This document shows, one piece after another, positions 15,425-59,692 of a stretch of DNA of 64,000 nt. Each line of letters starts with the position of its first letter. Position 1 is the stretch's first letter. Under the pieces are notes generated by a model. That model was not told where the DNA came from and made no database searches. It saw only the letters and a list, made by a program, of their open reading frames with translations. A program made the position numbers and the translations under genes. This stretch comes from Bdellovibrionota bacterium (GTDB lineage: Bacteria > Bdellovibrionota > FAC87 > UBA2466), in the NCBI GenBank assembly GCA_041749855.1, contig JBGTAN010000040.1, positions 7,921 to 71,920 of the forward strand, written 5' to 3'.

Positions 15425-15663
15425 GGCTGAAGTCGAAACCAGGGATTTTTATTCCGAAAGAGGACGAACTGGTTCCCAAGGTGACTAAGCGGTCACATTC
15501 AATTTTATCGAGATATTTCGATTTTCTTCCGTGGAGGAAGACGATTTGCTCGTTCGGGTCATCGAACTAACTACCCGACAAATGGTGGAAAGTATTCACT
15601 TTTAAAAGATGGTACCGCTTGCTGTATTGTGGTTTCCGGGCGGATCCGCTATATGCCGTCGCC

Positions 15664-35807: not shown

Positions 35808-36611
35808 CTAACGTCGTCCGCGTCCGCCGCCGCCGCGGCCACCGCCGCCCGCTCCGCCGCCACCCTTTTCGAGGTTACGCACGTACTCCATGAAGTTCTC
35901 GCGGTTTTCTAGCGTTTTGTCGTAGCGTCCACGGCCGCCCCCGCCTTGGCGTCCACCGCCGCCACCCTGGCGACCTCGCGCCTGTCCGCGATCTCCCCCT
36001 CCACGATTATCGCGATTGCCACTCTTCTCAGAGTTATGGTGACTTCGCCCCTCGAGCGCACTGGTCAACAGTTCAGCAACACACTGCTCAATCGAAACGC
36101 GCTCCTGAATGCGCCGAGCTTCGAGTTTGCGATACAGGGTTTGGGAAACAGGCAATTCAATCGATGAAGGGTACTCCTTCGTGCGATGAATGGGATTGGG
36201 CACTGGTTGTCCGGCCTGACGAAGACTGGCGAGCTTTGAATGCAGCTTATCTTCTGCAAGGTAAACGGCTTCGCTGCGGACCAAGTCTAAAACCTTCAAT
36301 TCAGGAAACTCAACAAAGCTAGCGGCATACATGCCCTCTTCCCGATCGTAGTAGACCTGAAGGGTAAAGGCTTCGGTTTCGGGTTCGTCTGCCCGTTCGC
36401 GCTGAGGCCGTCTGGTTTCAGCGGGTCCTAGCTGAGCCGTTTGGCTGTCTTCTTCCAATTCGCCGGCGTACTCCACAGGGTCTATCTCCTCAGGCGGTGG
36501 CTCCGCCGGGGCTTTGCGAGCGGCTGGGCGCTCTTCGCGCCTAGGGGTGCTCGCACGTGGACTCTTACGGGCAGATTTCCCGGTTGAACCGGCTTTTTTC
36601 TCGTCACTCAC
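35808..36611 (-). CDS. hypothetical protein with HicB-like (UPF0150) segment and Arg/Gly-rich C-terminal tail
   Basis: Segment FTLQVYYDREEGMYAASFVEFPELKVLDLVRSEAV resembles the HicB/UPF0150 fold; the C-terminus is RGG/GGR-rich (GGGDRGQARGRQGGGGGRQGGGGRGR...GGGGAGGGGRGGGGRGRR). Confidence 0.35.
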   Translation of the reverse strand: MSDEKKAGSTGKSARKSPRASTPRREERPAARKAPAEPPPEEIDPVEYAGELEEDSQTAQLGPAETRRPQRERADEPETEAFTLQVYYDREEGMYAASFVEFPELKVLDLVRSEAVYLAEDKLHSKLASLRQAGQPVPNPIHRTKEYPSSIELPVSQTLYRKLEARRIQERVSIEQCVAELLTSALEGRSHHNSEKSGNRDNRGGGDRGQARGRQGGGGGRQGGGGRGRYDKTLENRENFMEYVRNLEKGGGGAGGGGRGGGGRGRR

Positions 36612-41994: not shown

Positions 41995-43998
41995 ATGCCT
42001 CGCCTTTCACTCGCAATCTTACTGACTCTGTTCCCGGTTCATACCTGCTTTGCCCTTCCCTATTACTTCAACGCAAGTGGCACCGACCAGCCACCTGGCG
42101 CCTCATTACAAACGCTTTGGGGAAAACCATCCAGCGACAGAGCGGGCGAACTACGCACCTTACGTATCAACTTGCGCTTAAGCGGAGTCGATATCACCTC
42201 CAATGGAGACGGATTCTATTCACTCCATGTCGCGGGCCTTCAGCCGCTCGGGCAGCTCGGTGCGCCCGACCTGCAGGGTGCGGGACTGCTACTCGCCATT
42301 CCCGACGGCATCGAGCCCACACTCACCATCGTTTCCCAACAAACGCGCCAATTGGATGCGATTGCGGCGCAACCCTGCCAATTTAAAGCGCGCTGCAAAC
42401 TGCCCCGCAGCCAAGTTCAATTTCATTACGATTCGGCTCTCTACGACTCGCAGAAATCCTTTCCGGAAGCGCCCGCGATGCTTGAGGAACTGGGGCAAAT
42501 GCAGAATGTGCGCTTGGTTCGCCTGGCACTCTACCCGCTTCGGATGAATATGCCCGCTCGTACCGTGGATGTGTCGACTGACCTCGAGGTAGAAGTGGCC
42601 TTCGCCGGAAAACCACTCACGCGTTTCGTGTCACAACCTTTTCGCCAGATGATGCTTCAGACGGCCTTCAATGCCGAAGACGTCGCCCCCTTCTACGCGC
42701 CGGCTCCCCAGACCGAGACGCTTCTCATCTTTGCCGCCAATAGCCTGCGCGCAGAACTCACGCCACTCGCTGAGTGGAAACGGCAGCGCGGAATGAACGT
42801 GGAACTGCTTACTTATTCGGATGTCGGCGCTTCACGCGACAAAGCGCGCAAGTATTTGCAAGACTACTACGACAAAGCCCAGAAGAAGCCGAGCTACCTA
42901 CTCATTGTCGGCAACAACTCCTCGTTCCCTGGCTTTCGCGAAAGCACCATGAGTGGATCCGCAGCGACGGACTACCCCTACTCTTTGTTGGAAGGCGGCG
43001 ACGCCCTTCCGGACATTTTTTACGGCAGACTGCTCGCTAACGATGCCTTGGAAGCGCGCACTCAAGTACGCCGATGGATAGACTACGAAAAGGCGACGAC
43101 TGACTCCGACTGGCTCGTCAAAGCCATGACTATCGCAAGCAACGAAGGCGATGATCCCTCGGATGAAGACTACGCGCGCCAAATCGAAAGGGCGCTCAAT
43201 CGCTTCACCTACAAAGACGTGGATCTGCTCTTTCAAGCAAACAGCTCCGCAACGCACTCCAACATTTGGAGTGGGCTTAAAGAGGGTCGAAGCTGGGTGG
43301 CCTATTTCGGGCATGGGACCGGAGAGGATTGGGCCTCCACCAATAAGATGTTCAATGTGAAAGACGTCGACAAAGTCGACAACGTCGGCAGACTTCCGAT
43401 TGTTATTGATGTCGCTTGTCAGAACGCCTCTTGGGTCGACATCAATCGCTGTTTCGGCAAAGCGTGGATGACACTCGATAAGAGTGGCCTGCCGGCTGGA
43501 GCCGTCGGCTACTACGGTGGGTCCGTGAATGTGAGCTGGCACGAACCTGCCGTGATGAGTGTGGGCGTTGCAAAGTACCACTTCGAAAAGCCCGTTTACT
43601 CCTTGGGGGCAGCCGTACTTGCAGGCCAGATCTACATGATTGAGCAGATGGGATTGGGAGAGAACACGAAGGACAACCTGCGGTGGTTCAATCTCTTTGG
43701 CGACCCCTCGATGCTCATCCGGACCGACAACCCACGACGCTATTCAGTCACTCAACATGTCACATTGGGTACTACGGAGTCGGAAATTCTTGTGAAGGCT
43801 TCGGACGCGATAAATGCGGGAGTGGGAGGCCTAACCGTCTCTGTCTGGGCCCCCGGAGCCAATCAACCCCTGGCCGTGGAAACCACCGACAATCGCGGAG
43901 TGGCCGTCTTGACCCTACCCGGAGTTTCCCAAATTCCTCAGGGAAGCTTACTCACCACTTCGGGTTACAATGTAGAAACCTTCCAAACGACTCTATAG
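41995..43998 (+). CDS. secreted peptidase family C25 (gingipain-like) cysteine peptidase
   Basis: Catalytic His region VAYFGHGTGEDWAST and Cys region LPIVIDVACQNASWVDI closely resemble RgpB (AYIGHGSETAWA / FDVACVNGDF); signal peptide MPRLSLAILLTLFPVHTCFA. Confidence 0.8.
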   Translation: MPRLSLAILLTLFPVHTCFALPYYFNASGTDQPPGASLQTLWGKPSSDRAGELRTLRINLRLSGVDITSNGDGFYSLHVAGLQPLGQLGAPDLQGAGLLLAIPDGIEPTLTIVSQQTRQLDAIAAQPCQFKARCKLPRSQVQFHYDSALYDSQKSFPEAPAMLEELGQMQNVRLVRLALYPLRMNMPARTVDVSTDLEVEVAFAGKPLTRFVSQPFRQMMLQTAFNAEDVAPFYAPAPQTETLLIFAANSLRAELTPLAEWKRQRGMNVELLTYSDVGASRDKARKYLQDYYDKAQKKPSYLLIVGNNSSFPGFRESTMSGSAATDYPYSLLEGGDALPDIFYGRLLANDALEARTQVRRWIDYEKATTDSDWLVKAMTIASNEGDDPSDEDYARQIERALNRFTYKDVDLLFQANSSATHSNIWSGLKEGRSWVAYFGHGTGEDWASTNKMFNVKDVDKVDNVGRLPIVIDVACQNASWVDINRCFGKAWMTLDKSGLPAGAVGYYGGSVNVSWHEPAVMSVGVAKYHFEKPVYSLGAAVLAGQIYMIEQMGLGENTKDNLRWFNLFGDPSMLIRTDNPRRYSVTQHVTLGTTESEILVKASDAINAGVGGLTVSVWAPGANQPLAVETTDNRGVAVLTLPGVSQIPQGSLLTTSGYNVETFQTTL

Positions 43999-44544
43999 AA
44001 CGGGCGGCCGCGTCGCCGGAGTGCCCGCTTTGCACTGTGCTGCCTCCAACTCAATCTTGAGGGTCCCGCTGGTGTTCGCCGTCCAGGCATCCACATACAA
44101 TTCCAGGAATCGCTGCTTTTCGGTCGTATCGAAGTCGACGACCGCTTCTCTCTCGACAAGCTGCGTCCGGTTCATCAGCCCCAATACCTCCACCGTCTGT
44201 GTCACACCGCTTGCCACTTCGGTCAGCTCCACTTGCTCTTCTATGATGGCTTGATTGCAATGCACGAGCAGCGGCTCAGTTTTGTGAAATAGGCAGTTCA
44301 GCAAAGGCCGAGTGGAGTAAGGACTCAGTCGCACGATGCGCACTTTCATCCGGTATGTCTTTCCATCGGGCGGCGCAGCTAGCAAGACACCTACGAGCGA
44401 TCCCGACTTATTAGGCTCCTCGACTTCCAGAATAAAATGATCGGCCTCTTCACGAAAAACAAAAGCCTTTCCGCAGTCGATAATAGCGTCCTGCTTGGCC
44501 AGAAGCGGCATAGCCAAAACGAATATCAAGAAACACTTTTTCAA
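43993..44544 (-). CDS. secreted hypothetical protein, paralog 1 of a tandem pair (4 conserved Cys)
   Basis: Signal MKKCFLIFVLAMPLLA. Shares the pattern C-G..F.F.EE.D.FI..V.E.N....V..L..P.D...Y.M..RI..L....P..NC.F..T..LL..C with the adjacent gene. Confidence 0.5.
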   Translation of the reverse strand: MKKCFLIFVLAMPLLAKQDAIIDCGKAFVFREEADHFILEVEEPNKSGSLVGVLLAAPPDGKTYRMKVRIVRLSPYSTRPLLNCLFHKTEPLLVHCNQAIIEEQVELTEVASGVTQTVEVLGLMNRTQLVEREAVVDFDTTEKQRFLELYVDAWTANTSGTLKIELEAAQCKAGTPATRPPVL

Positions 44545-45155
44545 TCTTGCTCCTCATCTTGCCAGCCACGAAAAAGACGTCGCGCACCAATAGACCTGGG
44601 CTCACCAAACGAGCAAACGGTCCGTTCGAAAGACAGAATGGATTTTCCTTCTCCCAAAGACGTCTTGCCATCAAACAGAACATCTACTGTCTTTCTCGTG
44701 GTGGTCTGATCCATGCTGCTCAACATCGTCCGAGAAGTTTCCGTGGCACGTACATTCAACTGAGAAATCTTCACCGCATGAACAACGCCGGTGGGCGACG
44801 TGAGCTTCATCCGCCCCACAACCGCACCCTTACTACAGTTGAACAGCAGACCATTTGTCTGGGTGAAAAAACAATTTGGCACGGGAGGTTGCCCGGCTGC
44901 CCGCGTCAGCTTGGGAATGCGAAACTCCATGGTGTACATCTGCCGATCCACGGGCGACTTCAGGTGAGAAACGAAAGAATGAGGGACGTTGCTTTCCCTC
45001 ACCGTGAAGATGAAATCGTCCACCCCTTCTTCAAACTGAAACATCGACAAATACAGACTCGAGGTATCATCACCCCCACAACGAATGGTCGGCAATGCCG
45101 CAAAGGCCTGGAAAGAAAGAAGGAATCCCAATAGAAGAAGATGCATTTTCCCCAC
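44541..45155 (-). CDS. secreted hypothetical protein, paralog 2 of the tandem pair
   Basis: Signal MGKMHLLLLGFLLSFQAFA; same conserved Cys framework; 4-nt overlap with paralog 1. Confidence 0.5.
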   Translation of the reverse strand: MGKMHLLLLGFLLSFQAFAALPTIRCGGDDTSSLYLSMFQFEEGVDDFIFTVRESNVPHSFVSHLKSPVDRQMYTMEFRIPKLTRAAGQPPVPNCFFTQTNGLLFNCSKGAVVGRMKLTSPTGVVHAVKISQLNVRATETSRTMLSSMDQTTTRKTVDVLFDGKTSLGEGKSILSFERTVCSFGEPRSIGARRLFRGWQDEEQD

Positions 45156-46282: not shown

Positions 46283-47140
46283 CTAGCGTCCGCGTTTCAA
46301 GTTCGAAAGCGCAATCAAGATTAATAAGAAAATGATCAAAGCGACGATGAGGAACTTCAGCAAGAACCACCAGTCGGTGGCTTCGGATTTCCTGCGTTGC
46401 GCTTCCTCAATCTGAAGCATCGCCTCATTCTGAGCGCGACGGGAATCTGCCCCAGAGGATTTATCCTGGCTCGTCGTCGCATCGTTTTTCGATTCCCCTT
46501 TGCGCACTTCGCGATCACCGGCTTCGCCTGAAGACTCTCCACTCCCCCCTCCGCCGCTGCCCGATCCGTAGGTCGCTCGCGAAGCGGCATCAGCCCCCTC
46601 ACCGCCGCCCTCTTTCCCCTTATTCCCATCGAAGAAGTTGGAATCCATTCCCCCTCCTTGACCAAATCCAGAGCCACCGCCCGCGCCTGCTCCGCCTCCG
46701 ACATTGCCTGCTCCGCCTACGCCACCGCGTCCTCCCACATCACCGGACCCGCCAACCCCGGCTTCGCCCTTACCGACGTTGCCACTTCCGCCTATAGCTC
46801 CGCCGCCCGCGCCGATATCGCCTGTTCCTCCCACGTTCCCCGTATTGCCAACATTACCGGAACCGCCGACCTCGCCGCCCCCCGTGCCGACATTGCCCTC
46901 CCCGTTTCCGGTATTGCCCTGCCGTTCCGCCGAGAACCAGATATTGGGAACAGGACGTTTAGGGGTTTGAGCGATAAAGTCCACCAGCTGTTGGCGGTTT
47001 CCCGACAGAGCCCCCATCATGCGATCGCCAAGGGTCGCGCGAATAATAGGAATGGCAACGGCCGCAACCACAGCGGTTACCATGAGGTAGTCCACCACCC
47101 CAGCGCCGCGGCGCCCCAACTTGAATGAAAGTGAATTCAT
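46283..47140 (-). CDS. Flp/Fap-pilin-like N-terminal domain fused to Gly-rich (GNVG-type) repeat region and C-terminal transmembrane anchor
   Basis: N-terminus ..RRGAGVVDYLMVTAVVAAVAIPII.. matches the Flp prepilin motif G/(A)TAIEYGLI..LIAVVI (D in place of E). About 180 aa of G-N-V-G/G-x-x-G repeats follow, then hydrophobic WWFLLKFLIVALIIFLLILIAL + KRGR. Confidence 0.5.
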   Translation of the reverse strand: MNSLSFKLGRRGAGVVDYLMVTAVVAAVAIPIIRATLGDRMMGALSGNRQQLVDFIAQTPKRPVPNIWFSAERQGNTGNGEGNVGTGGGEVGGSGNVGNTGNVGGTGDIGAGGGAIGGSGNVGKGEAGVGGSGDVGGRGGVGGAGNVGGGAGAGGGSGFGQGGGMDSNFFDGNKGKEGGGEGADAASRATYGSGSGGGGSGESSGEAGDREVRKGESKNDATTSQDKSSGADSRRAQNEAMLQIEEAQRRKSEATDWWFLLKFLIVALIIFLLILIALSNLKRGR

Positions 47141-47145
47141 TTTTC

Positions 47146-48549
47146 TTAAAGAGCGATTCCCAAAGCCGTGAGTAGCTTCTGCTGTATCTTACCAAACTCG
47201 CCGTTCGACATCACAACGACGACATCCCCTGGCTGGTGTTCGCGTTTGAACAAATCGACCATCTCATCGACCTCGGTGAAGCACGCCGCTTCTTTGCCAC
47301 TTCGAGCCAAGTCTTCTACTAGAGATCCTGCATCGAATCGTTGCCCCTGCGGCAGATCGCTTGCCTTGTAGGGAGAACCGACAATGACTCGGTCCGCATC
47401 TTTGAATGCAGCAGGGTATTCTTCTTGGTGCGATCCTCGGCGTGCGGTGGCAGACCGCGGTTCGAAAAAAGCCCAAAGGCGTCCCGTCGTGAAACGTTCC
47501 CGAACGGACCTTAAAGTAGCGGCCACCTCGGTGGGATGGTGCGCAAAATCATCCACCAACACGATCGGTTTTTTACACAAAATCTGTTGCCGTCGTTTCG
47601 CGCCTCGAAAGCGCTCCACCACCGTGCGTATCTTGTCTATCGACCCACCAAAATGCACCGCGGCCGCGATCCCGGAAACAATATTTAAAGCGTTATGTTC
47701 TCCAAACATCGGCGTTCGGAACCACCCTAGGTTTCGCTTCCCACACTCCAACTCGAAGCTTAAGCCTTCCGGATCCTGCTTCACCGCTGCGATGCGCCAA
47801 TGCGCGCCCGGAGTAGTTCCGAAAGTTTGAACGGGGCAGAGAGCGCCTTCAGCAACCTCGCGCACCACTTTGTCTTCGAACCGCGCAATGCACAGACCAT
47901 CGCCCGGAAGAAGAGCCACCAGCTTTTCGAACGAAGCCTGCACGTGAGCGAGATCGCGATAAATATCTGCGTGATCAAACTCAATGTTCGCCAAAACAAG
48001 ACAGTGGGGATTGTAATGAAGAAACTTGGGCCCTTTATCGAAAAAGGCCGAGTCATACTCGTCACCTTCACCGACGAAAACCTTTCCTTCGGCCTGGATG
48101 GCACAGCCACTGGGCAAATCAACCGGAACTCCGCCAATGAGATAAGAGGGGGCTAAACCTAGTTCCTGAAAGAGAAAGGCGATCCACGAAGTGGTTGTCG
48201 TCTTGCCGTGGGTACCCGCGCAGACCACACTTTTTCTATCGCCGATAACGTAGCGTCGAACCGCTTCTGGAAAAGACAAATACCGCACCCCGCTTCGAAT
48301 CCAAGCACAGGCTTCGGGATTGTCTTTGCGAACGACATTTCCAATGATCACGGTATCCGGTTTGACTCTAGATACATGCTCCGCCAAATAGCCTTCAAAC
48401 AATTTTACATTGGCTTGGGCTAGCACCGTTTTCATGGGCTCGTAGAGGGTGCCGTCACTCCCACTGAGGGAGTGTCCGCTCTTGGCCAAGGCAACAGCGA
48501 GCGTTCCCGTGCCCACCCCTCCGACACCTACAAAATGGATCTTTTCCAC
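47146..48549 (-). CDS. mpl: UDP-N-acetylmuramate:L-Ala-gamma-D-Glu-meso-DAP ligase (murein peptide ligase)
   Basis: MEKIHFVGVGGVGTGTLAVALAKSGHSLSGSD.., GTHGKTTTT and DEYDSAFFDK resemble Mpl rather than MurC in length and N-terminus. Confidence 0.8.
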   Translation of the reverse strand: MEKIHFVGVGGVGTGTLAVALAKSGHSLSGSDGTLYEPMKTVLAQANVKLFEGYLAEHVSRVKPDTVIIGNVVRKDNPEACAWIRSGVRYLSFPEAVRRYVIGDRKSVVCAGTHGKTTTTSWIAFLFQELGLAPSYLIGGVPVDLPSGCAIQAEGKVFVGEGDEYDSAFFDKGPKFLHYNPHCLVLANIEFDHADIYRDLAHVQASFEKLVALLPGDGLCIARFEDKVVREVAEGALCPVQTFGTTPGAHWRIAAVKQDPEGLSFELECGKRNLGWFRTPMFGEHNALNIVSGIAAAVHFGGSIDKIRTVVERFRGAKRRQQILCKKPIVLVDDFAHHPTEVAATLRSVRERFTTGRLWAFFEPRSATARRGSHQEEYPAAFKDADRVIVGSPYKASDLPQGQRFDAGSLVEDLARSGKEAACFTEVDEMVDLFKREHQPGDVVVVMSNGEFGKIQQKLLTALGIAL

Positions 48550-48558
48550 TCTAAGCTC

Positions 48559-49617
48559 CTACTTGTTTGCCCACTCGGCTGCTATCAAATCGTGCAGCTG
48601 CGGTCGTATGCGACGAATTCTCTCATCGAGCCGTGAGGGGTGCACGCGATTGGTCGAGAAAACGGCAATGCCCCCCGATTTCGGATCGATCCACACACTC
48701 GCCCCTGGATATCCAAGGTGGCCAAAAGAGGCGGAAGAAAACAGATTTCCCGCAGAGGAACCTTTTTCCGATTTCGTGTCCCAGCCTAAAGCCCACGAGG
48801 AACCAGAAACTCGACTCGCGCGTTTTACAAAGGTTTGTGCGGTCGCCTGGCCAAGCCACTTGGACTGCCCCTCCACTGCCGCCAACCACTCGCGTGCCCA
48901 ATAACCCAGGCCGCGTGCCGTAGCGAAAAGGCCTGCGTGGGGAGTCACCCCGCCCAGGGCACTGCTGTTTTCGTCAAAAGGCACGCCCACCAGTGGCAGG
49001 CTTGCGCGCACTTCGGTGGCTACCACTTCCGCCTTTGCCGGAAGTTTGGGATAGACCACTTCCGTCAAACCCAGGGGTTGCTGCACCCGTTCCCGGTAAC
49101 AGACACCCAGATCCTGATTCCAAATCTCTTTGATTGCCTCACCCAAAACCAAGAAGCCTAGGTCACTGTAGGAGGTGGTCGTGTCGGGCGGCGCAACCAC
49201 CCATTCTGAGGCTCGCTTTCCCAACCAGCTGCGGATACCGACTTTTGCAAAATCGGTTTCATACAACGGCAACCAATCTTTCAGTCCCGAGGCATGACAA
49301 AGAAGAGAACCCAGCTCGATTTTCCCAATGGCGTTTGATCGCCACTCCGGAATCCACTTCGCAACAGTGTCGCTTAAAGCGGCTTTGCCCTGGTCTACTG
49401 CGAGTGCGAACAAGGAACCTGTGACCACCGATTTCGTAATTGACCCGATATCGAAGTAGCTCCCGGCGTGCACAGGCACAGCCTCAGGCCAGTAGCTCGT
49501 AGACCCCCCGCTCCATTCCCGACTGGACCCGCGACACTCTGCCCAGACTTGGTAGCCCGAGAAACAGAAAACACGCCTTGATTCCTCTAGGAGCTCTTTT
49601 ATGGGGTCGTTGTGCAA
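48559..49617 (-). CDS. serine hydrolase of the beta-lactamase/PBP family
   Basis: SxxK motif GSITKSVV and overall class-C-like fold features. Confidence 0.7.
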   Translation of the reverse strand: MHNDPIKELLEESRRVFCFSGYQVWAECRGSSREWSGGSTSYWPEAVPVHAGSYFDIGSITKSVVTGSLFALAVDQGKAALSDTVAKWIPEWRSNAIGKIELGSLLCHASGLKDWLPLYETDFAKVGIRSWLGKRASEWVVAPPDTTTSYSDLGFLVLGEAIKEIWNQDLGVCYRERVQQPLGLTEVVYPKLPAKAEVVATEVRASLPLVGVPFDENSSALGGVTPHAGLFATARGLGYWAREWLAAVEGQSKWLGQATAQTFVKRASRVSGSSWALGWDTKSEKGSSAGNLFSSASFGHLGYPGASVWIDPKSGGIAVFSTNRVHPSRLDERIRRIRPQLHDLIAAEWANK

Positions 49618-49632: not shown

Positions 49633-50784
49633 TTAGGGAGTGATCGCCGATACCGCAGTCACCGTCGGCAAGAGGCGGTCTCTCAACTCGAAAGCATAGA
49701 TATTACCGTAGTTACTGAGGCCGTACACCCAGCCATCTTCCGCGGAACCCGCAAAACTGGCCAGCGTCCCTGCCCCGAGTGAAACCTGGGCTCGCACTTT
49801 CCCAGTTGCTCTATCCAGGAAATAAACCGGGTCCGTACTGGTTGGGAAAATCAGGGTCTCGCCCATCAGCAGAGGCGCGGCGGAAACGCCATTTTCGAAA
49901 GGAGTTGTCCATACTGGCTGCCCACTCCCCAGATCTAGCGCATAGAACTGCTTATTGACCCCGCCAAAATAAAGTCGGTTCCCGTCCACCGCAAAACCAG
50001 AATAGCTTCCGACGGGAAACACCCATTGGGTATCTCCGCTAATTCGATCCAGACTATAAACCCGACCATCAAACGTGGCGGCGATCACCCGCTTTTCGTC
50101 TACGAACGGCGTCATGTCGATATCGTAAAATCGCTCGCGGCTTTTCAGTCGTTTTTCCCAGAGAACTTTGCCTTTTTCCGCGCCAAGCGCCACGAGGGTG
50201 CCATCCGCGAACCCCTGATACACTTCGGTCGTTCCAAAAAGCGCAGGCCCCCCGCTACCGCGTATGGTCATCTTCTCATCGCCGCGGTGCGAATAATGCC
50301 ACAGCTCTTCGCCTTTGCTTTCGCTCAACGCATAGAGATCGCCACTCGCATTGATAGCGTAAACAAAGCCCCGAGTAATAGCCGGTGGTGAAAGCCATTC
50401 CATCTGCCCTTTAAAGCGCCACGCTTCGGAACCGTCCCGCGCGTTGAGCGCAATCAGATTTCCCTGCTTATCGCCGACAATAAGCTTTGATCGACCGTAG
50501 GAAAACGCGCCTTCGACGCCCCCAGGCACCGAGGTTTCCCACAGCACAAAACCTTTGGTGCGGTGAAAGGCAACCACGCGCCCTTGCTGATCGGCTACAT
50601 AGAGAATTTCTCCCAGCAGCAAAGGACGGGTACGTTCATAAGGTCCCAGTCCAAAAACGGTGGAAGATCGCATCGGGATGACGAACGTCGGGAGTACTTC
50701 CAACGAGGGCAACGCAGACGCCGCTTGTAATGAAAGACTGGAAAGCAACCAGCCAAACGCTAAAACACCCCTCACTTTGCGCAT
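49633..50784 (-). CDS. bamB: PQQ-like beta-propeller repeat protein (BamB-like)
   Basis: Signal peptide, repeated ..G.LYALD..G...W.. blades; directly downstream of a YfgM-like gene as in the yfgM-bamB synteny. Confidence 0.6.
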   Translation of the reverse strand: MRKVRGVLAFGWLLSSLSLQAASALPSLEVLPTFVIPMRSSTVFGLGPYERTRPLLLGEILYVADQQGRVVAFHRTKGFVLWETSVPGGVEGAFSYGRSKLIVGDKQGNLIALNARDGSEAWRFKGQMEWLSPPAITRGFVYAINASGDLYALSESKGEELWHYSHRGDEKMTIRGSGGPALFGTTEVYQGFADGTLVALGAEKGKVLWEKRLKSRERFYDIDMTPFVDEKRVIAATFDGRVYSLDRISGDTQWVFPVGSYSGFAVDGNRLYFGGVNKQFYALDLGSGQPVWTTPFENGVSAAPLLMGETLIFPTSTDPVYFLDRATGKVRAQVSLGAGTLASFAGSAEDGWVYGLSNYGNIYAFELRDRLLPTVTAVSAITP

Positions 50785-51603
50785 TTAAAGCTTCTCCGAG
50801 AGCAAAGGACTGTCCATGCGCCGCAAGTAATTCTTCGCCATGCGAGCGTATTCGGTGTTGGGGAAATCGGTAGCTACAGTTTGGTAAGTCGTCTTTGCGG
50901 CAGCGACCTCTTTCTTGGCCTCCAACGCCCGTCCCGCATTGACCATGGCAAGCGCTTTGCCCTGACCTCCGCTATCCACCACTGACTGGTAAGCCTTCAG
51001 CGCTTCATCCCAATTGCCCTGAATTTCCCAGGCGTAGCCTTGGTTCAGGTTGAGCAGATCGCGTTCGGCCGGGATAAGACCTGAAAAACCAAGCGCTTTC
51101 CCATACCATTCCACCGCCTGCGCACCTGCTTGCTGCACCGTTAAAGTAGGTTCGAGGTCTTGCTTGGTCTCATCGGCGAGCTTGGCCTCCTTGCCGGTCA
51201 CTTCTTTCACCCTCAACGATCGAACTTTGCGCTGAGCCGCATCGTAGTAATGATCCGCCACCGTGACGGCTGCCATAAACGAACCTCGCTGACCCGAACT
51301 GGTCTCATAGACCTCTTTCATTTTAGCGATGCGTTCGGGGCCTTTGAGCTCATTGGCCTCGAAATACGAAGTCCAACCTTTCGCTAGACGGCTGGAAGAC
51401 CAGCTTTTATAGGCCTCATAGCCAAACCCTGCCGCTACAATGAGTACCAGCAGGATGAGCAGCGGATTGCGATTCTGCGCCAAACTCTCCAGTGCCTGCC
51501 GACCTCGGCGCACAAAGGTGTCGGGCTTCTTCAAGGCTTTTCTATCAATTTTGTCCTGGCTCATATGACTTTGGAACCTACCTGAACTCTTGAGCGCTTT
51601 CAA
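50785..51603 (-). CDS. YfgM-like membrane-anchored TPR protein
   Basis: N-terminal basic region, single TM (LLILLVLIVAAGFGY), then a helical TPR-like body; synteny with the BamB-like gene. Confidence 0.5.
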   Translation of the reverse strand: MKALKSSGRFQSHMSQDKIDRKALKKPDTFVRRGRQALESLAQNRNPLLILLVLIVAAGFGYEAYKSWSSSRLAKGWTSYFEANELKGPERIAKMKEVYETSSGQRGSFMAAVTVADHYYDAAQRKVRSLRVKEVTGKEAKLADETKQDLEPTLTVQQAGAQAVEWYGKALGFSGLIPAERDLLNLNQGYAWEIQGNWDEALKAYQSVVDSGGQGKALAMVNAGRALEAKKEVAAAKTTYQTVATDFPNTEYARMAKNYLRRMDSPLLSEKL

Positions 51604-53863: not shown

Positions 53864-55090
53864 TCAGTTGTAAGCGCATCGAAACCCCGTAGTGGGATCG
53901 GTTGTCAGCGGACCCAAACCCAAATCGACTTGAAATACACCCACAGGAATAGCCGTGGCATAGCCACCCCCTCGAATGATGACCCCGCCCGAAATTCCCA
54001 ACCAGCCATACCCCAATCCGCCGTACTCACCGGAGTTTTTCGAAACGTAGCTACCGAATGGGCCCCACATTTCCGGATGGTTCAAGCCAGAGGTCCAGGG
54101 TTGCTGGGAAATGTAGCCGCTGACTCCTTCAAAAGGCGGGCCCGCGGCAATATCGCCTTTCACCGACTCCCAGGCATTTCCGGCAATGTCCCAGATGGTC
54201 TCTCCGCTGGAAAGCACGTGGGTGCGCTTTTGCGTGAAATGCGCATGCGCATTGTTGGCGCAGTTCGCATTTCCCGTCCCAAAGCAAGGATCGCCATCGG
54301 TACTAGCGGCAAGCAGACCGAACGGAGCAAAGTCTGAGTGGCCGTGATTGATCCCATTTGCACCAGCGGTGGATCCATTGCTCCAGTTGAGTTGGACGCC
54401 CGCGCTTTCGGCAGTCTCGATTTCGCGAGCCACCGCCTGCCATTGCGCATTTGAGATCAGATCGAAACCAGGGCCGATATTGCGGCATCGGGTAATCGTT
54501 CCAGGAGTGCCGCCATTGTCATCGCGAGAAATAGATGCCCAGGGAAGACCTGCCATCTGCGAAACAGCGTTGCTACTACCGTCGTCTTTCATTTCATATT
54601 TCGCTACGCAAAAAGCTTCTACAACTCCCACGTCTGCGTTCGGACCCACTGCCAAATAGTTTGTGGGGCACGTGATACCAGGCACTCCCGAAGCCGTAGC
54701 CCCCGCTGTGTACTGGTAAGCACCGTTGTAGGAAAAGACTTGGTAGTGATAGGTCGCGCCATTGGTTAAAGCTGTATCGGCGGCCGTCGTCCAGGATCCT
54801 GAATACACCACCAAGTGGGTGCTACCCACCGCTTGTCCCGCGCTGTAAACCTCTCCATCGACAGGATCCCAGTGAACTTCCGAGTCCGGGTGGCGCACGA
54901 GCAAGTACCCATAGCTACCGGCCGCACTCTGCCAACTTGCGTTCAGCGCTTCCCACTGCGGATCCAGGTGCAATGGGGAGACCACAGAGGCAGCTGCCTG
55001 GCCTATGCACCCGCCGATGCACAAGCCCAGGCCGCAACCACTGGTGGAAAGAAGAAGGAAAACCCCCATCCCGGAAAGCCAAAACCTCAT
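53864..55090 (-). CDS. lipoprotein with C-terminal formylglycine-generating-enzyme (FGE/SUMF1)-like domain
   Basis: Lipoprotein signal MRFWLSGMGVFLLLSTSGCG; C-terminal ..GNAWESV..IIRGGGYATAI...TTGFRCAYN resembles FGE-sulfatase domain ends (RGGS.., GFRC). Confidence 0.55.
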   Translation of the reverse strand: MRFWLSGMGVFLLLSTSGCGLGLCIGGCIGQAAASVVSPLHLDPQWEALNASWQSAAGSYGYLLVRHPDSEVHWDPVDGEVYSAGQAVGSTHLVVYSGSWTTAADTALTNGATYHYQVFSYNGAYQYTAGATASGVPGITCPTNYLAVGPNADVGVVEAFCVAKYEMKDDGSSNAVSQMAGLPWASISRDDNGGTPGTITRCRNIGPGFDLISNAQWQAVAREIETAESAGVQLNWSNGSTAGANGINHGHSDFAPFGLLAASTDGDPCFGTGNANCANNAHAHFTQKRTHVLSSGETIWDIAGNAWESVKGDIAAGPPFEGVSGYISQQPWTSGLNHPEMWGPFGSYVSKNSGEYGGLGYGWLGISGGVIIRGGGYATAIPVGVFQVDLGLGPLTTDPTTGFRCAYN

Positions 55091-55132: not shown

Positions 55133-55951
55133 TCAGGTCCCTGTCGCCAGGCTCCAGACCAGAATAAACACCGCTGCAAGAATGCGGTACCAAGCGAACA
55201 CGCTAAAGTCCGCAGCGCGCAGGTAAGTAAGCAAAAAATGGATGCTTAAAATTCCGGAAATCAAGGACGCCAGAAAACCGGCAATCAGATACGCCGAAGA
55301 GAATCCTGCAAAACCTGACTCAATCAGGTTTCTCATTTCGTAGGCCCCGGCTGCGGCAGTGATGGGTAAAGACAGCAAGAACGAGAAACGAGCCGCTGCT
55401 TCCCGATTAAAACCTAAGTATCGCCCCATCGTCATCGTCGAGCCTGAGCGCGAGACACCGGGAATCAGCGCGAACATCTGGGCAAACCCAATCAGCATCG
55501 CATCTTTCATCGTGAAGTCGTTTTGATTGCGATAGGGAGGAAAGCGCCCATCGATCCAGTACATGAGAAAACCGACTAAAGCCAAACTGATAGCAATCAC
55601 CAGCGGCGCGCGAAACGCGCCCTCAGAAAGATCATGAAACAGAAAGCCTGCCAACCCCGCTGGGATCGTAGCGCACATCAACATCCAAAACATCATGCGA
55701 TCCCGCTCAAACCCAATTTTACGTTCAAGGATGCTCAGTAGGCCTGCGCGCAAAAGCGCCATCCAATCCCCGAAAAAATAGCCAAGGACCGCGGCCATCG
55801 TTCCGAAGTGCAGAAAGACATCGAAAGAAAGTCCGGGGTCCTGCCAGCCAAAAACCCAGGGCACTAGCGCCAAATGCGCGGAACTGCTGATGGGAAGAAA
55901 CTCGGTAATACCCTGAACGAGCCCCAAAACAATGGCTTGAAAGACCGACAT
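55133..55951 (-). CDS. uppP: undecaprenyl-diphosphate phosphatase
   Basis: MSVFQAIVLGLVQGITEFLPISSSAHLAL.. canonical UppP/BacA N-terminus, 272 aa. Confidence 0.9.
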   Translation of the reverse strand: MSVFQAIVLGLVQGITEFLPISSSAHLALVPWVFGWQDPGLSFDVFLHFGTMAAVLGYFFGDWMALLRAGLLSILERKIGFERDRMMFWMLMCATIPAGLAGFLFHDLSEGAFRAPLVIAISLALVGFLMYWIDGRFPPYRNQNDFTMKDAMLIGFAQMFALIPGVSRSGSTMTMGRYLGFNREAAARFSFLLSLPITAAAGAYEMRNLIESGFAGFSSAYLIAGFLASLISGILSIHFLLTYLRAADFSVFAWYRILAAVFILVWSLATGT

Positions 55952-56030: not shown

Positions 56031-57200
56031 CTATTTTGGACTTTGCGCCTTGGCGGTCACTAAGCGCTGAACCGATTGGTAGTGATCGAGCAAACCTCGC
56101 AAAAGCCCGAGGTTGATTGCGGGAACCCGGTTGCCTCCAGCGCCTTCCATGTCGACGGCAGCAGTTAGGCTATTCAAAATCGCTTCCTCGGTGGCTTCGA
56201 TGACGCTCTTATAAACAGGATCCAAAGCGCTATCGCGGATCATTCTCACCTGGTCCGCGATATCCTTGGGCCGATGCGGTACTTCATTGGCCGTGGAAAA
56301 ACCGATGATGATCTCACCACTTCCGTGCGCACCGTAGCTCCCGGTTCGACCAATGCCCAACGCGGCTCTTCGGCAGACGCGATTCATTTGTTGGGTACTC
56401 AGCGGAAGATCCGTTCCGACCACCGCAATGATGGAGCCGTAGTTATTGACGCGACGAGAGTATTTGCCCTGAGCGATGGAGAGCAACCGCCCCACGGGGT
56501 ACCCATCCATCCGCAGGTCTTCCATGATCCCGAAGTTCGCGCACACCAGCACTCCCAAAGTGTAGTCTTTGCCACCCAAATTGAGCACACGGCTAGAGGT
56601 CCCAATACCTGCTTTGAAGTCGCAGCAGATCATTCCGGTGCCCGCACCGACGGCCCCCTCTTCCACTGGACCCGATGCAGCGTTGTCGAGCGCCGCAAAC
56701 ACATTCTGAGGCTTGATATGCAAGCCCACCGCATCATTTAGAAAGCTATCGTCGCACTCGCCAACCACCGGGATAATCACTTCCTGCTGTTCGCGAATTT
56801 CAGGATAGCGTTGAGCCATCCACTTTACGACGCTATCGCTCACGCGCCCCACCGACATGGTATTGGTGAGTGCAATGGGTGTTTCGATGAGGCCCCACTC
56901 GGAGAGCTGAGTAAACCCAGATACCTCGCCCGCGCCACTTAAGATGAATCCTCCGCTAATGAGTTTGCGGCTATAGATATCGTCGTTGGGAACGATGACG
57001 GTTACGCCTGTGCGCACCGGACCGTTGCCAGGCTTTCGTCGCCCCGATCCTTCGATCAAAGTGGTGTGTGCCACTCGCACGCCGGGAACATCCGTGATGG
57101 CGTTGAGAGGACCGGTTGGAAAATTCCCAATTCCCACACCGAGATCCCGCAGGCGGCAACGCGCCTTCGCGTCTTCCCGGTAACGTTCGAATAAATTCAT
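56031..57200 (-). CDS. P1/S58 (DmpA-type) family peptidase/aminopeptidase
   Basis: N-terminus ..LRDLGVGIGNFPTGPLNAITDVPGVRVAHTTLIEG.. and a size of ~390 aa match DmpA/BapA-type Ntn-hydrolases. Confidence 0.75.
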   Translation of the reverse strand: MNLFERYREDAKARCRLRDLGVGIGNFPTGPLNAITDVPGVRVAHTTLIEGSGRRKPGNGPVRTGVTVIVPNDDIYSRKLISGGFILSGAGEVSGFTQLSEWGLIETPIALTNTMSVGRVSDSVVKWMAQRYPEIREQQEVIIPVVGECDDSFLNDAVGLHIKPQNVFAALDNAASGPVEEGAVGAGTGMICCDFKAGIGTSSRVLNLGGKDYTLGVLVCANFGIMEDLRMDGYPVGRLLSIAQGKYSRRVNNYGSIIAVVGTDLPLSTQQMNRVCRRAALGIGRTGSYGAHGSGEIIIGFSTANEVPHRPKDIADQVRMIRDSALDPVYKSVIEATEEAILNSLTAAVDMEGAGGNRVPAINLGLLRGLLDHYQSVQRLVTAKAQSPK

Positions 57201-59296
57201 GTCTGACGCAACTTTCCAGCACTGCGCCAGCGCTGCATCGCGGGCGTCAAAATACGATTGATGAGGTTTTCGTAACTGAGTCCCGACCGCTCGGACATGA
57301 CGACTAGGTCGCTAAAGCCCGGCGTAAGTCCCGGCAAGGGATTGATCTCTAGGAAATAAATTCCGCCTTTGGAATCAATCTTAAAGTCTATTCGAGCCAC
57401 ATCCCGACATCCCAGGGACCGATAGACTTTGCGCGCAAAGGCCGCAATCTTTCTATCCATCTCCTTGCCAAGGCTCGCGGGGCACTCCAGCTGGAAGATA
57501 TTGTTCGAATCGTTCGGAAGGTTTTTCGCTTCGAACGAGTAAACCGGATACTGACCGGCATCGTGCAAAAATTTAATCTCCATCGGACCGATGAGGCGCA
57601 GCGTAGAGTTGCCCAAAACGCCAATCGTAAACTCCCGCCCCTCCACGTACTCCTCACAGAGCACAGGCTCGTGGAATCGGCCCCACAGCTCCTTAACGAG
57701 CACTTCGAGTTCCGCCTGATTCGAAACGACCGACTTTCCGCCAATCCCCTTCGACGTGCCTTCTTGATTGGGTTTCACAATCACGGGAAACGTCAGTCCG
57801 GGTTCGACCATCTTCCCGCCGGAATAAAGCCGATAGGCAGGCGTGAGCATCCCGTCCTGGCTTAAAAGCTTCTTCGTAATGGCTTTATCGAGTGTGATTG
57901 CCAAACACGTTGCGTCGCTCCCTGTGTGCTCCACACCGAGCAAATCGCAAATGGCGGGAACCTGCGCTTCTCGAGCGCGCTTATTCGAGCCTTCCGCGAT
58001 ATTGAAAACCACTTCGACATTCGCCGCTTTTAGGTTCTCGGCCAGCGTCTTATTCGCCTCAATACAAAGAATGCGTCCCACTTTCTTCTGCAAGACGGCG
58101 GCGATGGCATCGACTGTACTTTGAGAATCGAATTCGGCTTCGCGTTCGTAGTCGGGATCCCCGTGGCTCTTGCGCTTTAAGTTATAGACCAGCGCGACGC
58201 GCGGCATTTTGCTGGTAACAATGCGACGAGGGGATTTCGGGCTTTTGCCCAAGCGCTTCAAGCGAGAAAGAGCAGCGTCTAAGATCCTCAAAACCGTCTG
58301 ATCGTAGTCCAATCCGATCACTTTGGACGCTTCGAACACACCCGCACCCTGTTGGAGACTCGGCAAAGCGTTGAGTTCGAGGAAATAGATCTCCCCTTCC
58401 GGGGTGATTCTAAAATCCGCGCGTGCAAAATCCACAGCGCCCGTCACAGGAACAATGCGTTTCATCATCTCGATGAGTTGCGACCGCGTCGCGGGTTCCA
58501 GCTCCGCGGGGCAACGTACCGACACCGCATCATCATTGTGGTTTTTTAAGTCGTAGTCGTAAACATTGTCGCCGTACCCGATCTTGGGGGTGAGCACGTA
58601 TTCAATGGGTTCCAACACTCCCCCATCGCCAAGCCCCGCGATGTAGGGAACTGCAACGTCACGACCGAGAACAAATCGCTCCGCCAAAATCCCATGCGGG
58701 AAGGTCTTTAGACACTCCGCGGCGTAGGCGAGAAAAGCATCGGAGTCACGGCACACAGACCGCGAAGTAATCCCCTTACTCGATCCTTCATAGTTGGGCT
58801 TAACAAACACCGGATAGACCATGTCTGATGCGACGCTGGCCAGATCTTCTGGGCTGTTGATAAAGTACCCTTCGATGACGGGTACATTGCGAGTCGCGAC
58901 CATTTGCTTGGTCAAAAACTTATCCAGGGTCAGGAAACATCCATAGGGCCCCGAGCCGACGTATGGCAGCTGCAACTGCTCGAAAAGTGTGGGCCCTAAG
59001 CTTTCACGCCCAATGCCGTAATACCCCTCCGCGGTGTTAAAAACGATATCGGGCTTTAACTGGCAAAGCTGCTCGACCCAGTAACTTAAGCGGTCGGGCG
59101 AAGGCATCTCTAAATCAATGACTTCATGGCCAGCGCGGCTCAGAGCCCGATGGATGGCCCCGATCGTTTCGGGGGTATCAAACTCGGCCTGCTCAACGGA
59201 CTGGTCTCTTTTCAGATTATAAACAAACGCTATTTTCAATAGCCGCTCCTGGAGTAAGAAAGAGAAATGAAGCATTTTACCGACAAAGACAAACAT
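57197..59296 (-). CDS. tandem double ATP-grasp protein: two D-alanine--D-alanine-ligase-like modules in one polypeptide
   Basis: Each half ends with a Ddl-type C-terminal motif (module 1 ..GAVDFARADFRITPEGEIYFLELNALPSLQQG..; module 2 ..GCRDVARIDFKIDSKGGIYFLEINPLPGLTPGFS..). 4-nt overlap with the downstream DmpA-family gene. Confidence 0.7.
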   Translation of the reverse strand: MFVFVGKMLHFSFLLQERLLKIAFVYNLKRDQSVEQAEFDTPETIGAIHRALSRAGHEVIDLEMPSPDRLSYWVEQLCQLKPDIVFNTAEGYYGIGRESLGPTLFEQLQLPYVGSGPYGCFLTLDKFLTKQMVATRNVPVIEGYFINSPEDLASVASDMVYPVFVKPNYEGSSKGITSRSVCRDSDAFLAYAAECLKTFPHGILAERFVLGRDVAVPYIAGLGDGGVLEPIEYVLTPKIGYGDNVYDYDLKNHNDDAVSVRCPAELEPATRSQLIEMMKRIVPVTGAVDFARADFRITPEGEIYFLELNALPSLQQGAGVFEASKVIGLDYDQTVLRILDAALSRLKRLGKSPKSPRRIVTSKMPRVALVYNLKRKSHGDPDYEREAEFDSQSTVDAIAAVLQKKVGRILCIEANKTLAENLKAANVEVVFNIAEGSNKRAREAQVPAICDLLGVEHTGSDATCLAITLDKAITKKLLSQDGMLTPAYRLYSGGKMVEPGLTFPVIVKPNQEGTSKGIGGKSVVSNQAELEVLVKELWGRFHEPVLCEEYVEGREFTIGVLGNSTLRLIGPMEIKFLHDAGQYPVYSFEAKNLPNDSNNIFQLECPASLGKEMDRKIAAFARKVYRSLGCRDVARIDFKIDSKGGIYFLEINPLPGLTPGFSDLVVMSERSGLSYENLINRILTPAMQRWRSAGKLRQT

Positions 59297-59692
59297 CTTT
59301 TCATTCTCGCTAAAGGCGAGAAGCTGGTGGAGACACTCACGAGAGGTCTGGGAGAGCTAAACCTGGCAGGAGCGGTGATCTCCGGGCTAGGAGCACTTTC
59401 TCACGCGGAACTCGGCTACTACGAGCTTGCAACTCAATCCTACCTGCGAAAGACCTTCACCGATGAGTATGAGCTAATCAGTCTCACGGGCAATCTCTCC
59501 TTGAAAGACGGCGCGCCCTTTGTTCACGTCCATGCAGCGCTGGGAGACCGAGCTTTCAGTGTCTTCGGAGGCCACTTATTCGAGGCCGAGGTTGCCGTAA
59601 CGGCAGAAATTTCCGTTATTCCCTTGGCTATTGCTCCGGAAAGAGTGCTCGACCCCGCGATCGGGTTGGGTCTTATTTGCCGGCTAGGCTAA
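59267..59692 (+). CDS. PPC/DUF296-domain protein
   Basis: 141 aa; ..LVETLTRGLGELNLAGAVISGLGALSHAELGYY...APFVHVHAALGD.. resembles the PCC/DUF296 fold. Confidence 0.5.
   Translation: MKHFTDKDKHLFILAKGEKLVETLTRGLGELNLAGAVISGLGALSHAELGYYELATQSYLRKTFTDEYELISLTGNLSLKDGAPFVHVHAALGDRAFSVFGGHLFEAEVAVTAEISVIPLAIAPERVLDPAIGLGLICRLG

Follow-up and report, generated by a model that had tools for sequence, protein, structure and literature searches.

The open reading frame at 46283-47140 on the minus strand of the window, by which the whole analysed stretch of 64,000 nucleotides is meant, is a genuine gene that is conserved in Bdellovibrionota and specific to this lineage, and its product belongs to a previously undescribed protein family. 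The family combines an N-terminal helix which, judged from sequence comparison, is homologous at the profile level to the Flp/Fap pilins, a likeness that is not a compositional accident, with a long linker and a C-terminal membrane anchor. The recurrence of this whole architecture in about 38 cluster representatives makes it a feature beyond chance. We tentatively interpret the protein as a double-anchored inner-membrane “tethered pseudopilin” that is probably cut by a prepilin peptidase.

The ATG-initiated frame (stop codon 46283-46285) encodes 285 aa, and its N-terminus, Gly-rich tract and C-terminus are exactly as first quoted in an earlier, sequence-only reading of this DNA. Word-indexed searches for homologues returned few matches; Gly-rich words saturate the candidate lists of such searches, so that an exhaustive profile search was needed to recover the family. 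This search of 1.84 billion proteins produced 41 matches, 36 of them with E below 1e-10, and defined the unnamed Bdellovibrionota-specific family of about 38 cluster representatives to which the window protein belongs. Every named genomic relative is a Bdellovibrionota MAG, and the full-length members span 254-299 aa. In the family alignments the ends are kept and the middle is divergent, the invariant residues being G12, P31, V53, Q58, P65, W68, F69 and W257. Counts of conserved residues given below refer to 28 full-length members, and comparisons of loci to 11 fetched loci.

The protein begins with a short basic leader, aa 1-12 (MNSLSFKLGRRG; 47105..47140, minus strand, as are all features of this gene), which ends in Gly12, the predicted -1 position for a prepilin peptidase. 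This glycine is present in 28/28 members and is aligned by hhalign with the Gly-1 of Flp; most members carry R or K at -2. The leader is followed by a Flp-like hydrophobic helix, aa 13-38 (AGVVDYLMVTAVVAAVAIPIIRATLG; 47027..47104), delineated by hhalign, AF2 and hydropathy, with Asp at +5, Tyr at +6 and a post-helix glycine, Gly38. The prepilin-type motif of the window protein is RRG/AGVVDYLMVTAVVAAVAIPII, so that the class III pattern, G/XXXXEY followed by a hydrophobic stretch of ~20 residues, is found with Asp replacing Glu as a conservative change. Across the family, position +5 is D or E in 27/28 members and Gln in the remaining one, position +6 is Tyr in 26/28 and Asn in a few, and loci of the genus Bdellovibrio carry the canonical G/xxxxEY form (G/SAIVEYLM). 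A conserved juxtamembrane module, aa 39-75 (46916..47026; R49, V53, F55, Q58, K61, V64-P65, W68-F69, E72), comes next, and leader, helix and juxtamembrane segment (aa 1 to ~75) add up to a module that roughly equals a Flp pilin in size.

The Flp-like, class III prepilin character that the sequence-only reading had assigned to this N-terminus is upheld by profile comparison. When the family N-terminus was aligned with 47 pilins of PF04964, hhalign gave a probability of 92.6% (E=4.7e-7) with Gly-1, the acidic +5, Tyr +6 and the post-helix Gly all matched in register, compared with at most 2.8% for the controls (reversed, column-shuffled and C-terminal TM sequences). In the search of 1.84e9 proteins, the family profile recovered a genuine Flp protein, P0043, at E=8e-4, and the family member P0022 matches the Pfam model Flp_Fap (PF04964) at 21.8 bits and E=1.6e-4. 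Matching of a curated Flp profile, the check proposed earlier, did not reach threshold: the gathering threshold of Flp_Fap is 32.2 bits, about 10 bits above the best family member, and neither the window protein nor its first 78 aa matches this model even at E<=10. Scans against Pfam, NCBIfam and PADLOC gave no curated match for the whole protein or for the N-terminus alone. TadE (PF07811) was absent at E<=10 from the 15 N-terminal sequences and 4 full-length members scanned, the family has no match to Class_IIIsignal (PF04021), and the type IVa N-methylation models (TIGR02532, PF07963) gave no NCBIfam match at E<=1 and no Pfam match. A tblastn search of plasmids with a Flp module, intended to gather annotated Flp genes, found no match; the Flp sequences were obtained by a homologue search. 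The weak top matches of a PDB profile search include N-terminal helices of type IV pilins (PilE1 at E=0.035, followed by geopilin) and, in the same tier, an archaeal Lon protease; artificial Gly linkers and VAMP2 were also weakly matched in the PDB profile searches.

Two other identities of the N-terminus were considered and rejected. An ordinary Sec signal peptide, which the sequence-only reading had named, together with a genome lacking a prepilin peptidase, as an outcome that would contradict it, is not a conserved feature, as AXA-like sites for signal peptidase I are not conserved across the family and the helix runs to residue 57. The protein is also distinct from the published flp3 of B. 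bacteriovorus (Bd3297), for which the supplementary primers give the start MKAQTII, the motif GLVEYLI and the end QLESDSK before the stop, compared with the family end ...LIALSNLKR.

The central part of the protein is a Gly/Pro-rich linker, predicted to be disordered, whose length, 181.8 +/- 6.4 aa, is kept across the family while its sequence diverges. The protein cleanly illustrates how a disordered linker can conserve its length in nature without conserving its sequence. Its first arm, aa 76-150 (46691..46915), consists of about 11 hexa/heptapeptide units of the form G-x-G-[NDE]-[VI]-G, contains 49% Gly and is predicted to be disordered, with an AF2 pLDDT of about 40. Of the GNVG repeat of ~180 aa described earlier, the Gly-rich tract is thus confirmed and the repeat length is not: the periodic G-[NDEA]-[VI]-G pattern is confined to aa 82-148, where all 10 spacings between 11 aliphatic positions are 6 or 7 (p<0.002 vs shuffles), and is followed to about aa 228 by non-periodic Gly/Ser/acidic low complexity. 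The periodicity of the first arm is family-wide. Near the middle of the linker lies the motif MDSNFF, aa 165-170 (46631..46648), about 80-100 aa from each membrane anchor; its general form is D-x-x-FF, with F169 unchanged throughout the first alignment of 8 members and FF kept in 25/28 members. The second arm, aa 171-228 (46457..46630), is of Gly/Ser/acidic low complexity and likewise predicted to be disordered, and AF2 as a whole assigns disorder to residues 77-226. At the DNA level, the earlier description as repetitive and GC-rich holds for composition, GC being 0.62-0.66 across 46400-47000 vs about 0.53-0.55 in the flanks, and has to be narrowed for repetition: only short, degenerate repeats occur, of which the longest measure 15-21 nt with 76-93% identity, and by TRF a 21-nt period is present in no more than 2-2.5 copies. 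Long exact repeats are lacking in the DNA, so that a misassembled tandem array, raised earlier as a possible flaw, is not an issue.

The C-terminal membrane anchor proposed in the sequence-only reading was recovered as the second of two TM-like segments in the hydropathy profile (aa 12-39 and aa 253-284), and the protein ends in KRGR. AF2 predicts helices at 13-57 (pLDDT 77-89), 229-253 and 257-284. The second of these is a charged amphipathic helix, aa 229-253 (SRRAQNEAMLQIEEAQRRKSEAT; 46382..46456; pLDDT about 84), and the third forms the tail anchor, aa 256-285 (46286..46375; pLDDT 94), composed of a DWW interfacial cap, the TM helix FLLKFLIVALIIFLLILIALSNL and the basic tail. The distance from DWW to the C-terminus is always 29-33 aa in the family.

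Under the tethered pseudopilin interpretation, both ends of the protein would be cytoplasmic, as suggested by the positive-inside rule, with the linker looping into the periplasm. The leader would most likely be removed after Gly12 by a prepilin peptidase, PilD in Bdellovibrio, and the freed pilin-like helix may then be able to dock into the Tad/type IV pilus assembly platform or the base of the filament. Since the tail anchor ties the helix to the inner membrane, the protein would be a tethered pseudopilin rather than a fibre subunit, acting as a regulator, plug or anchor. It counts against this interpretation that we know of no precedent for a C-terminally anchored pilin-like protein. If the combination of a Flp-type N-terminus with a built-in membrane leash is true, the pilin fold is used here in a previously unseen way, and such a tethered protein could regulate, plug or anchor a type IV filament machine. 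In a bolder version of this idea, which we consider improbable, the protein would represent a type IV filament component of a new class, a pilin subunit whose attachment to the inner membrane is permanent. The PilD-cleaved Flp-like helix would be a terminal or basal subunit of the Tad pilus, and the ~180-aa tether with its tail anchor would work as a leash that limits length or as an entropic spring, halting extension, holding the fibre in place or aiding retraction. Through co-transcription with mpl and bamB, the anchoring of the pilus would be coupled to the upkeep of the envelope.

Tad/Flp pili are essential for predation by Bdellovibrio (PMC5430801; bioRxiv 10.64898/2026.07.08.737194), the Tad pilus being essential for prey invasion. 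For the Bdellovibrio clade, a Flp complement larger and more diverse than any other known has been reported, and two inventories of it name only Flp1-4, TadE/F and TadG. A suitable peptidase is available in the clade: the lack of TadV in a genome would not be decisive against a prepilin reading here, because Bdellovibrio has no TadV (PMC5430801) and its PilD cleaves Flp1 (bioRxiv 10.64898/2026.07.08.737194). Against the tethered pseudopilin stand the absence of a match to any curated pilin model in the scans described above, the absence of tad, pil or peptidase genes from the neighbouring regions scanned, and the Gln at +5 in one member and Asn at +6 in a few.

A nearly equal rival, which we also regard as possible and rate slightly lower, is that the protein is an envelope scaffold or spacer, in which the Flp-derived segment is an uncleaved signal-anchor and the whole forms a two-anchor inner-membrane hairpin. 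Its loop of fixed length, maybe polyproline-II-like, would offer the FF motif to a partner in the periplasm, the peptidoglycan or the outer membrane, and the protein would work with a YfgM-like protein, BamB, a beta-lactamase-fold enzyme and Mpl. This reading draws on the gene neighbourhood. The gene lies immediately downstream of mpl (murein peptide ligase; 47146..48549, minus strand; TIGR01081, E=1e-98), as had been noted before, the mpl stop being 5 bp upstream of its ATG, and mpl is a probable operon partner. The gene and the yfgM-like, bamB, beta-lactamase-fold and mpl genes show tight, operon-like spacing of 0-15 bp, and the gene is probably co-transcribed with them; a promoter and terminator scan around it gave nothing informative. 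It is directly downstream of mpl in 10/11 fetched loci, that is, in all those reaching upstream, and the neighbourhood is conserved in each of these, with no pilus genes nearby. The earlier observation that the window is devoid of tad genes was reproduced: no tad, pil or prepilin-peptidase genes were detected in the scanned ORFs of the window or within +/-10 kb of the two loci with called genes. These housekeeping envelope neighbours fit an envelope role better than a pilus role. The linker, too, is in keeping with a spacer, its length being maintained while its sequence drifts and FF being placed well away from both anchors, and the aliphatic spacing of 3 or 6 in a Gly/Pro-rich sequence is compatible with an extended helix of three residues per turn. 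Such a helix is found in the TonB spacer. However, the scaffold leaves unexplained the near-invariant Gly-1 and the acidic +5 residue within a TM segment, both hallmarks of prepilin-peptidase substrates, and the protein has no similarity to TonB, TolA or known envelope-spanning families. Should it nevertheless be correct, the family would clearly show how a prepilin helix can be put to new use as the anchor of an envelope scaffold.

It is unlikely that the Flp likeness arose by convergence or coincidence; the protein would then be a generic membrane protein with two TM segments and a low-complexity loop, unrelated to pilins in evolution and mechanism. The lack of curated-model matches would agree with this, as would the facts that the similarity spans only about 40 mostly hydrophobic residues and that P0040, a polytopic-looking protein with many hydrophobic segments, also has a GxxxxEY-type segment. 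Nevertheless, the control alignments fall far below the real one, four separate landmarks match in register, and the TM segment keeps its charged residue across the family.

A pilin-like surface fibre or surface-released protein, as envisaged in the sequence-only reading together with a functional link to the neighbouring C25 protease, appears a little less likely still. In this case the DWW-TM-basic end would be a cleavable signal of the exosortase, rhombosortase or sortase type, and the C-terminus does have the three-part layout of a sorting tag (motif, TM helix, basic tail); fibre formation by the periodic Gly-rich tract is conceivable in principle. Yet no NCBIfam CTERM or sorting-domain model (PEP-CTERM, GlyGly-CTERM, MYXO-CTERM, LPXTG and similar) was matched even at E<=1, and the entire 23-residue TM sequence is conserved, not merely a short motif. 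Six-frame scans of the window and the 11 loci found one DWW-TM motif per locus, which argues against a sorting signal because a sorting system should serve several substrates. The family-invariant C-terminal TM anchor argues against a released fibre, and the repeat tract is disordered according to AF2. As for the protease, the C25 and glutaminyl cyclase genes are conserved neighbours, but the C25 gene is encoded on the other strand, with the glutaminyl cyclase gene in between, and lies in a housekeeping synteny block of roughly 25 kb, which speaks against the proposed link. The predicted mature N-terminus of C25, inspected with regard to a link between glutaminyl cyclase and C25, is not Gln. 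Lastly, the reading of the locus as an artefact, either a non-coding or misassembled GC-rich repeat or the mirror of a true antisense gene (plus-strand ORFs 46658-47128 and 46704-46970, the latter Pro-rich), is ruled out for practical purposes by family conservation, since homologues with conserved N- and C-terminal domains and length occur in many independent assemblies, long exact DNA repeats are lacking and GGN codons would be expected to give rise to such antisense ORFs as their mirror image.

Among known systems, the Flp/Fap type IVb (Tad) pilins of PF04964 resemble the family in their short leader with a terminal Gly, in the residues at +5 (acidic) and +6 (Tyr), and in a hydrophobic helix of ~20 residues that precedes a conserved Gly. 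In contrast to these pilins of 50-80 aa, the window protein has about 210 extra residues, including the second TM anchor (aa 257-284); the family mostly has Asp for Glu at +5 and DYL(M) where Flp has EYG/A-L, its scores are below the Pfam threshold, and its gene resides in a probable mpl operon and not near tad genes, although linkage to tad/cpa genes is not strictly defining for Flp, as BALO genomes carry flp genes not associated with tad loci (PMC5430801). The closest functional analogy is provided by the TadE/TadF/TadG pseudopilins, in which a pilin-like N-terminus of the prepilin-peptidase type is likewise carried by a larger, non-fibre protein; these differ in having folded periplasmic domains, in lacking a C-terminal TM anchor and in being encoded in tad loci. 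Archaeal non-pilins with class III signal peptides, such as the sugar-binding proteins of the bindosome that are processed by PibD, also combine a signal ending in [KR]-G with a non-pilin bulk, but they belong to another domain of life, have folded domains and lack a second anchor. TonB and TolA can be compared by analogy only: they share the N-terminal inner-membrane anchor, the long low-complexity Pro/Gly/charged spacer of constrained length and the envelope-related context, whereas the family has no sequence similarity to them and no C-terminal globular domain, and its C-terminus returns to the membrane. Finally, WW-capped tail-anchored proteins such as VAMP2/synaptobrevin show the same succession of a charged helix, WW, Lys and a terminal TM helix; the VAMP2 profile match is weak (E=0.039), as are the Pfam matches to Use1 and Synaptobrevin, and since VAMP2-type proteins are eukaryotic SNAREs, the likeness is architectural only and not significant.

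The ORF at 46283-47140 (minus strand, ATG start) encodes a protein of 285 aa that starts MNSLSFKLGRRG/AGVVDYLMVTAVVAAVAIPII..., continues into a Gly-rich tract and ends ...DWWFLLKFLIVALIIFLLILIALSNLKRGR, with TM-like segments at aa 12-39 and 253-284 by hydropathy. Gly accounts for 49% of aa 76-170, and within aa 82-148, built of the repeat unit G-x-G-[NDE]-[VI]-G, 11 aliphatic residues are spaced by 6 or 7, a regularity reproduced by no shuffle. The sequence-only reading had described a Gly-rich repeat of about 180 aa; its periodic part is confined to aa 82-148, and aa 171-245 are Gly/Ser/acidic low complexity lacking the 6/7 period. The GC rise noted in that reading was recovered, with values climbing to 0.62-0.66 over the Gly codons, but the repetitiveness of the DNA amounts to short, degenerate repeats, so that a collapsed or expanded tandem array, and with it the misassembly raised as a possible refutation, is no concern. 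Two plus-strand ORFs antisense to the gene (46658-47128, 156 aa; 46704-46970, 88 aa, Pro-rich) were rejected, since they are what a coding strand rich in GGN produces as its mirror image. The gene itself is genuine, its being an artefact is excluded, and it founds a narrow family.

A word-indexed homologue search returned 7 relatives of 269-293 aa, none annotated. An HMMER profile built on residues 1-78 and run exhaustively against 1.84 billion cluster representatives gave 41 matches, 36 of them below 1e-10, among which all full-length members measure 254-299 aa. The distribution is lineage-restricted: in a scan covering each species by a single genome, 9 loci were found, and all those with a specific taxon name belong to Bdellovibrionota MAGs (Pseudobdellovibrionaceae, Bdellovibrio sp. 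ZAP7 and Bdellovibrionaceae UBA2466). Where members were looked up, no functional name was attached to any of them. Alignments show two conserved parts, an N-terminal module of about 75 aa and the C-terminus, F-D-W-W-x-L-L-K-I-L-I-V...L-I-A-L-S-N-L-K-R, on either side of a highly divergent middle. The residues that never vary across 28 full-length members are G12, P31, V53, Q58, P65, W68, F69 and W257; Y18, L19, L52, F55, V64, W258, L264, I269 and I276 are nearly invariant.

The proposed Flp-prepilin-like leader is borne out by motif conservation and by profile comparison, but not by curated profiles, since Pfam (E<=10, for the N-terminus or the whole protein) and NCBIfam (E<=1) gave no match. 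The Gly at position -1 is found in 28/28 members, an acidic residue at +5 in 27 (Asp or Glu; Gln in the other) and Tyr at +6 in 26 (Asn in two); in loci from Bdellovibrio (the genus) the sequence is RRG/SAIVEYLM, with the canonical G/XXXXEY. For comparison, 120 PF04964-bearing Flp proteins were gathered and 47 aligned. Against these 47, the family N-terminus scored a probability of 92.6% (E=4.7e-7) in hhalign, with Gly-1, the acidic +5, Tyr +6 and a post-helix Leu-Gly in register. The controls, in which either alignment was reversed, columns were shuffled 30 times or the family's own C-terminal TM helix was used, reached a probability of at most 2.8% and a score of at most 16, versus a real score of 39. 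Library-wide, the family profile also found P0043 at E=8e-4, which is itself a genuine double Flp (PF04964 E=1.4e-20), and, at E=4e-7, P0040, a protein with Flp-like modules; a family member, P0022, matched Pfam Flp_Fap at E=1.6e-4, its 21.8 bits falling short of the 32.2 cut-off. A profile search of the PDB yielded weak matches only, among them type IV pilin N-terminal helices (PilE1 E=0.035, geopilin 0.24, 0.74) and archaeal Lon protease (0.13-0.19). From these results we conclude that the first 40-75 residues are a remote homologue of the Flp prepilin; the protein does not belong to the Flp family as curated.

P0040, a metagenomic protein of 418 aa from outside the window, contains a tandem row of four Flp-like modules (ESGQG-[TV]-[VI]-EY... 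together with hydrophobic helices) and matches Flp_Fap and Class_IIIsignal weakly; it may represent a poly-Flp precursor or else a polytopic protein composed of Flp units.

The two ends of the protein are joined by a linker of nearly fixed length: the WF and DWW motifs are separated by 181.8 +/- 6.4 aa (range 170-196, 28 members), while composition varies (Gly 13-35%, Pro 0-17%), and DWW lies 29-30 aa from the C-terminus in all members except two. Near the middle of the linker, 25 of the 28 carry an FF motif (D-x-x-F-F), about 81-102 aa past WF and 84-95 aa ahead of DWW. Aliphatic residues of the first arm are spaced by 6, or by 3 plus 3, throughout the family, significantly so versus shuffles (p<0.05) in about 19/28 members, whether the filler is Gly-rich, as in the window, Pro-rich or charged. 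Such a three-residue period in a Gly/Pro-rich arm would fit a polyproline-II-like extended conformation. AlphaFold2, run with the 28-sequence alignment, predicted helices at residues 13-57 (pLDDT 77-89 up to residue 50), 229-253 (about 84) and 257-284 (94), and no structure at 77-226 (about 40); a shallower 8-sequence run agrees. The family has no conserved AXA-type signal-peptidase I site. Under the positive-inside rule, the charges before TM1 (K7, R10, R11) and after TM2 (KRGR) would place both termini in the cytoplasm and the loop in the periplasm.

The genomic context is operon-like. As had been noted, the gene lies immediately downstream of mpl (47146-48549, minus strand; TIGR01081 E=1e-98, three Mur-ligase domains), whose stop is 5 bp ahead of the ATG. 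A yfgM-like TPR gene (50785-51603), bamB (49633-50784), a beta-lactamase-fold gene (48559-49617), mpl and the target gene occupy one strand with gaps of 0-15 bp, which suggests a single operon. As judged by tblastn of the window neighbours against related loci and by the called genes of two of these, L010 and L011, the conserved block comprises a fused double D-Ala-D-Ala ligase, an S58 peptidase, UppP, an OMP, the YfgM-like gene, BamB, the beta-lactamase-fold gene, Mpl, the target and glutaminyl cyclase, followed by a C25 peptidase on the opposite strand, the isc Fe-S operon and AhpC. The DnaJ-domain and Hsp70 genes adjoining C25 (39096-41590 and 37080-38396, both plus strand) were considered as chaperones of a protease module and rejected: because the block continues into the isc operon (IscS upstream; in related loci also IscR, IscU and IscA), these genes are HscB and HscA. 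Also in agreement with the sequence-only reading, no tad, cpa or pil domain was detected in the window ORFs scanned or in the related loci examined, and in six-frame motif scans each locus showed only a single Flp-like N-terminus and a single DWW-TM C-terminus, both the target's.

Several neighbours deserve mention in their own right. The glutaminyl cyclase (PF05096; 45200-46012, minus) and the gingipain-like C25 peptidase with a propeptide domain (41995-43998, plus) are conserved in most related loci, a pair that recalls Porphyromonas, where secreted proteins are pyroglutamylated by glutaminyl cyclase; the predicted mature C25 N-terminus (after ...HTCFA) is Leu, not Gln. Between them lie tandem paralogues of 183 and 204 aa (43993-44544 and 44541-45155, both minus) with hydrophobic, signal-peptide-like N-termini, a stop/start overlap of 4 bp and no Pfam or NCBIfam match; a related locus, L001, has three tblastn-matching copies (about 11900-13560), so copy number differs between genomes. 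The double ligase, a 699-aa protein with two D-Ala-D-Ala-ligase/ATP-grasp halves (57197-59296, minus), is followed at overlapping or tight spacing by the S58 (DmpA-like) peptidase (56031-57200, minus) and UppP/BacA (55133-55951, minus); this trio, which L010 and L011 share, may constitute an unusual peptidoglycan-peptide module. In a 763-aa ORF (23058-25349, plus) the dephospho-CoA kinase (CoaE) domain is limited to residues 581-752, and the first ~580 residues match no Pfam family at E<=0.001; at the same threshold, five ORFs of 267-652 aa have no Pfam match (53864-55090, 59673-61034 and 35808-36611, minus; 61275-63233 and 15619-16623, plus).

We infer function throughout, and the genomic context points to housekeeping. 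Tentatively, the protein is read as a double-anchored, inner-membrane tethered pseudopilin: prepilin peptidase would remove the leader, and the Flp-like helix could engage a type IV filament platform while staying leashed. This reading is favoured because the near-invariant Gly-1 and acidic +5 inside a TM helix are otherwise hard to explain. The same residues weigh against the main rival, a possible one, in which the helix is merely an exapted, uncleaved anchor of an envelope scaffold presenting the mid-loop FF to a periplasmic partner, although such a scaffold fits the gene neighbourhood better than does a tethered pseudopilin. Pure coincidence of the Flp likeness is unlikely, and so is a released surface fibre or sorting-tag protein.

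The known element in this unannotated, narrowly distributed family is the Flp-type prepilin N-terminus; we know of no described case in which it is followed by a fixed-length linker and then a tail anchor. Ordinary Flp proteins of Bdellovibrio have been catalogued. Avidan et al. (PMC5430801), screening BALO genomes by a position weight matrix for GXXXXEY, listed flp1 (bd0119), flp2 (bd0118), flp3 (bd3297) and flp4 (bd4000). Of these, bd3297 was considered as a family member and rejected: its primers encode an MKAQTII... start, an internal GLVEYLI and a ...QLESDSK* end, so it is an ordinary flp gene distinct from this family. Tesseur et al. (bioRxiv 10.64898/2026.07.08.737194) inventoried Flp, TadE/F, TadG and the core Tad genes. 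The available text of these two papers makes no mention of a long, C-terminally anchored Flp-like protein. According to the same text, TadV is absent from all Bdellovibrio genomes (Avidan et al.) and Flp1 is processed by the T4aP peptidase PilD without TadV (Tesseur et al.), so that the absence of TadV, taken as a refuting condition, is uninformative in this clade. The Tad machine is reported there to be essential for prey invasion (Tesseur et al.), and the family described here touches this machinery essential for bacterial predation.
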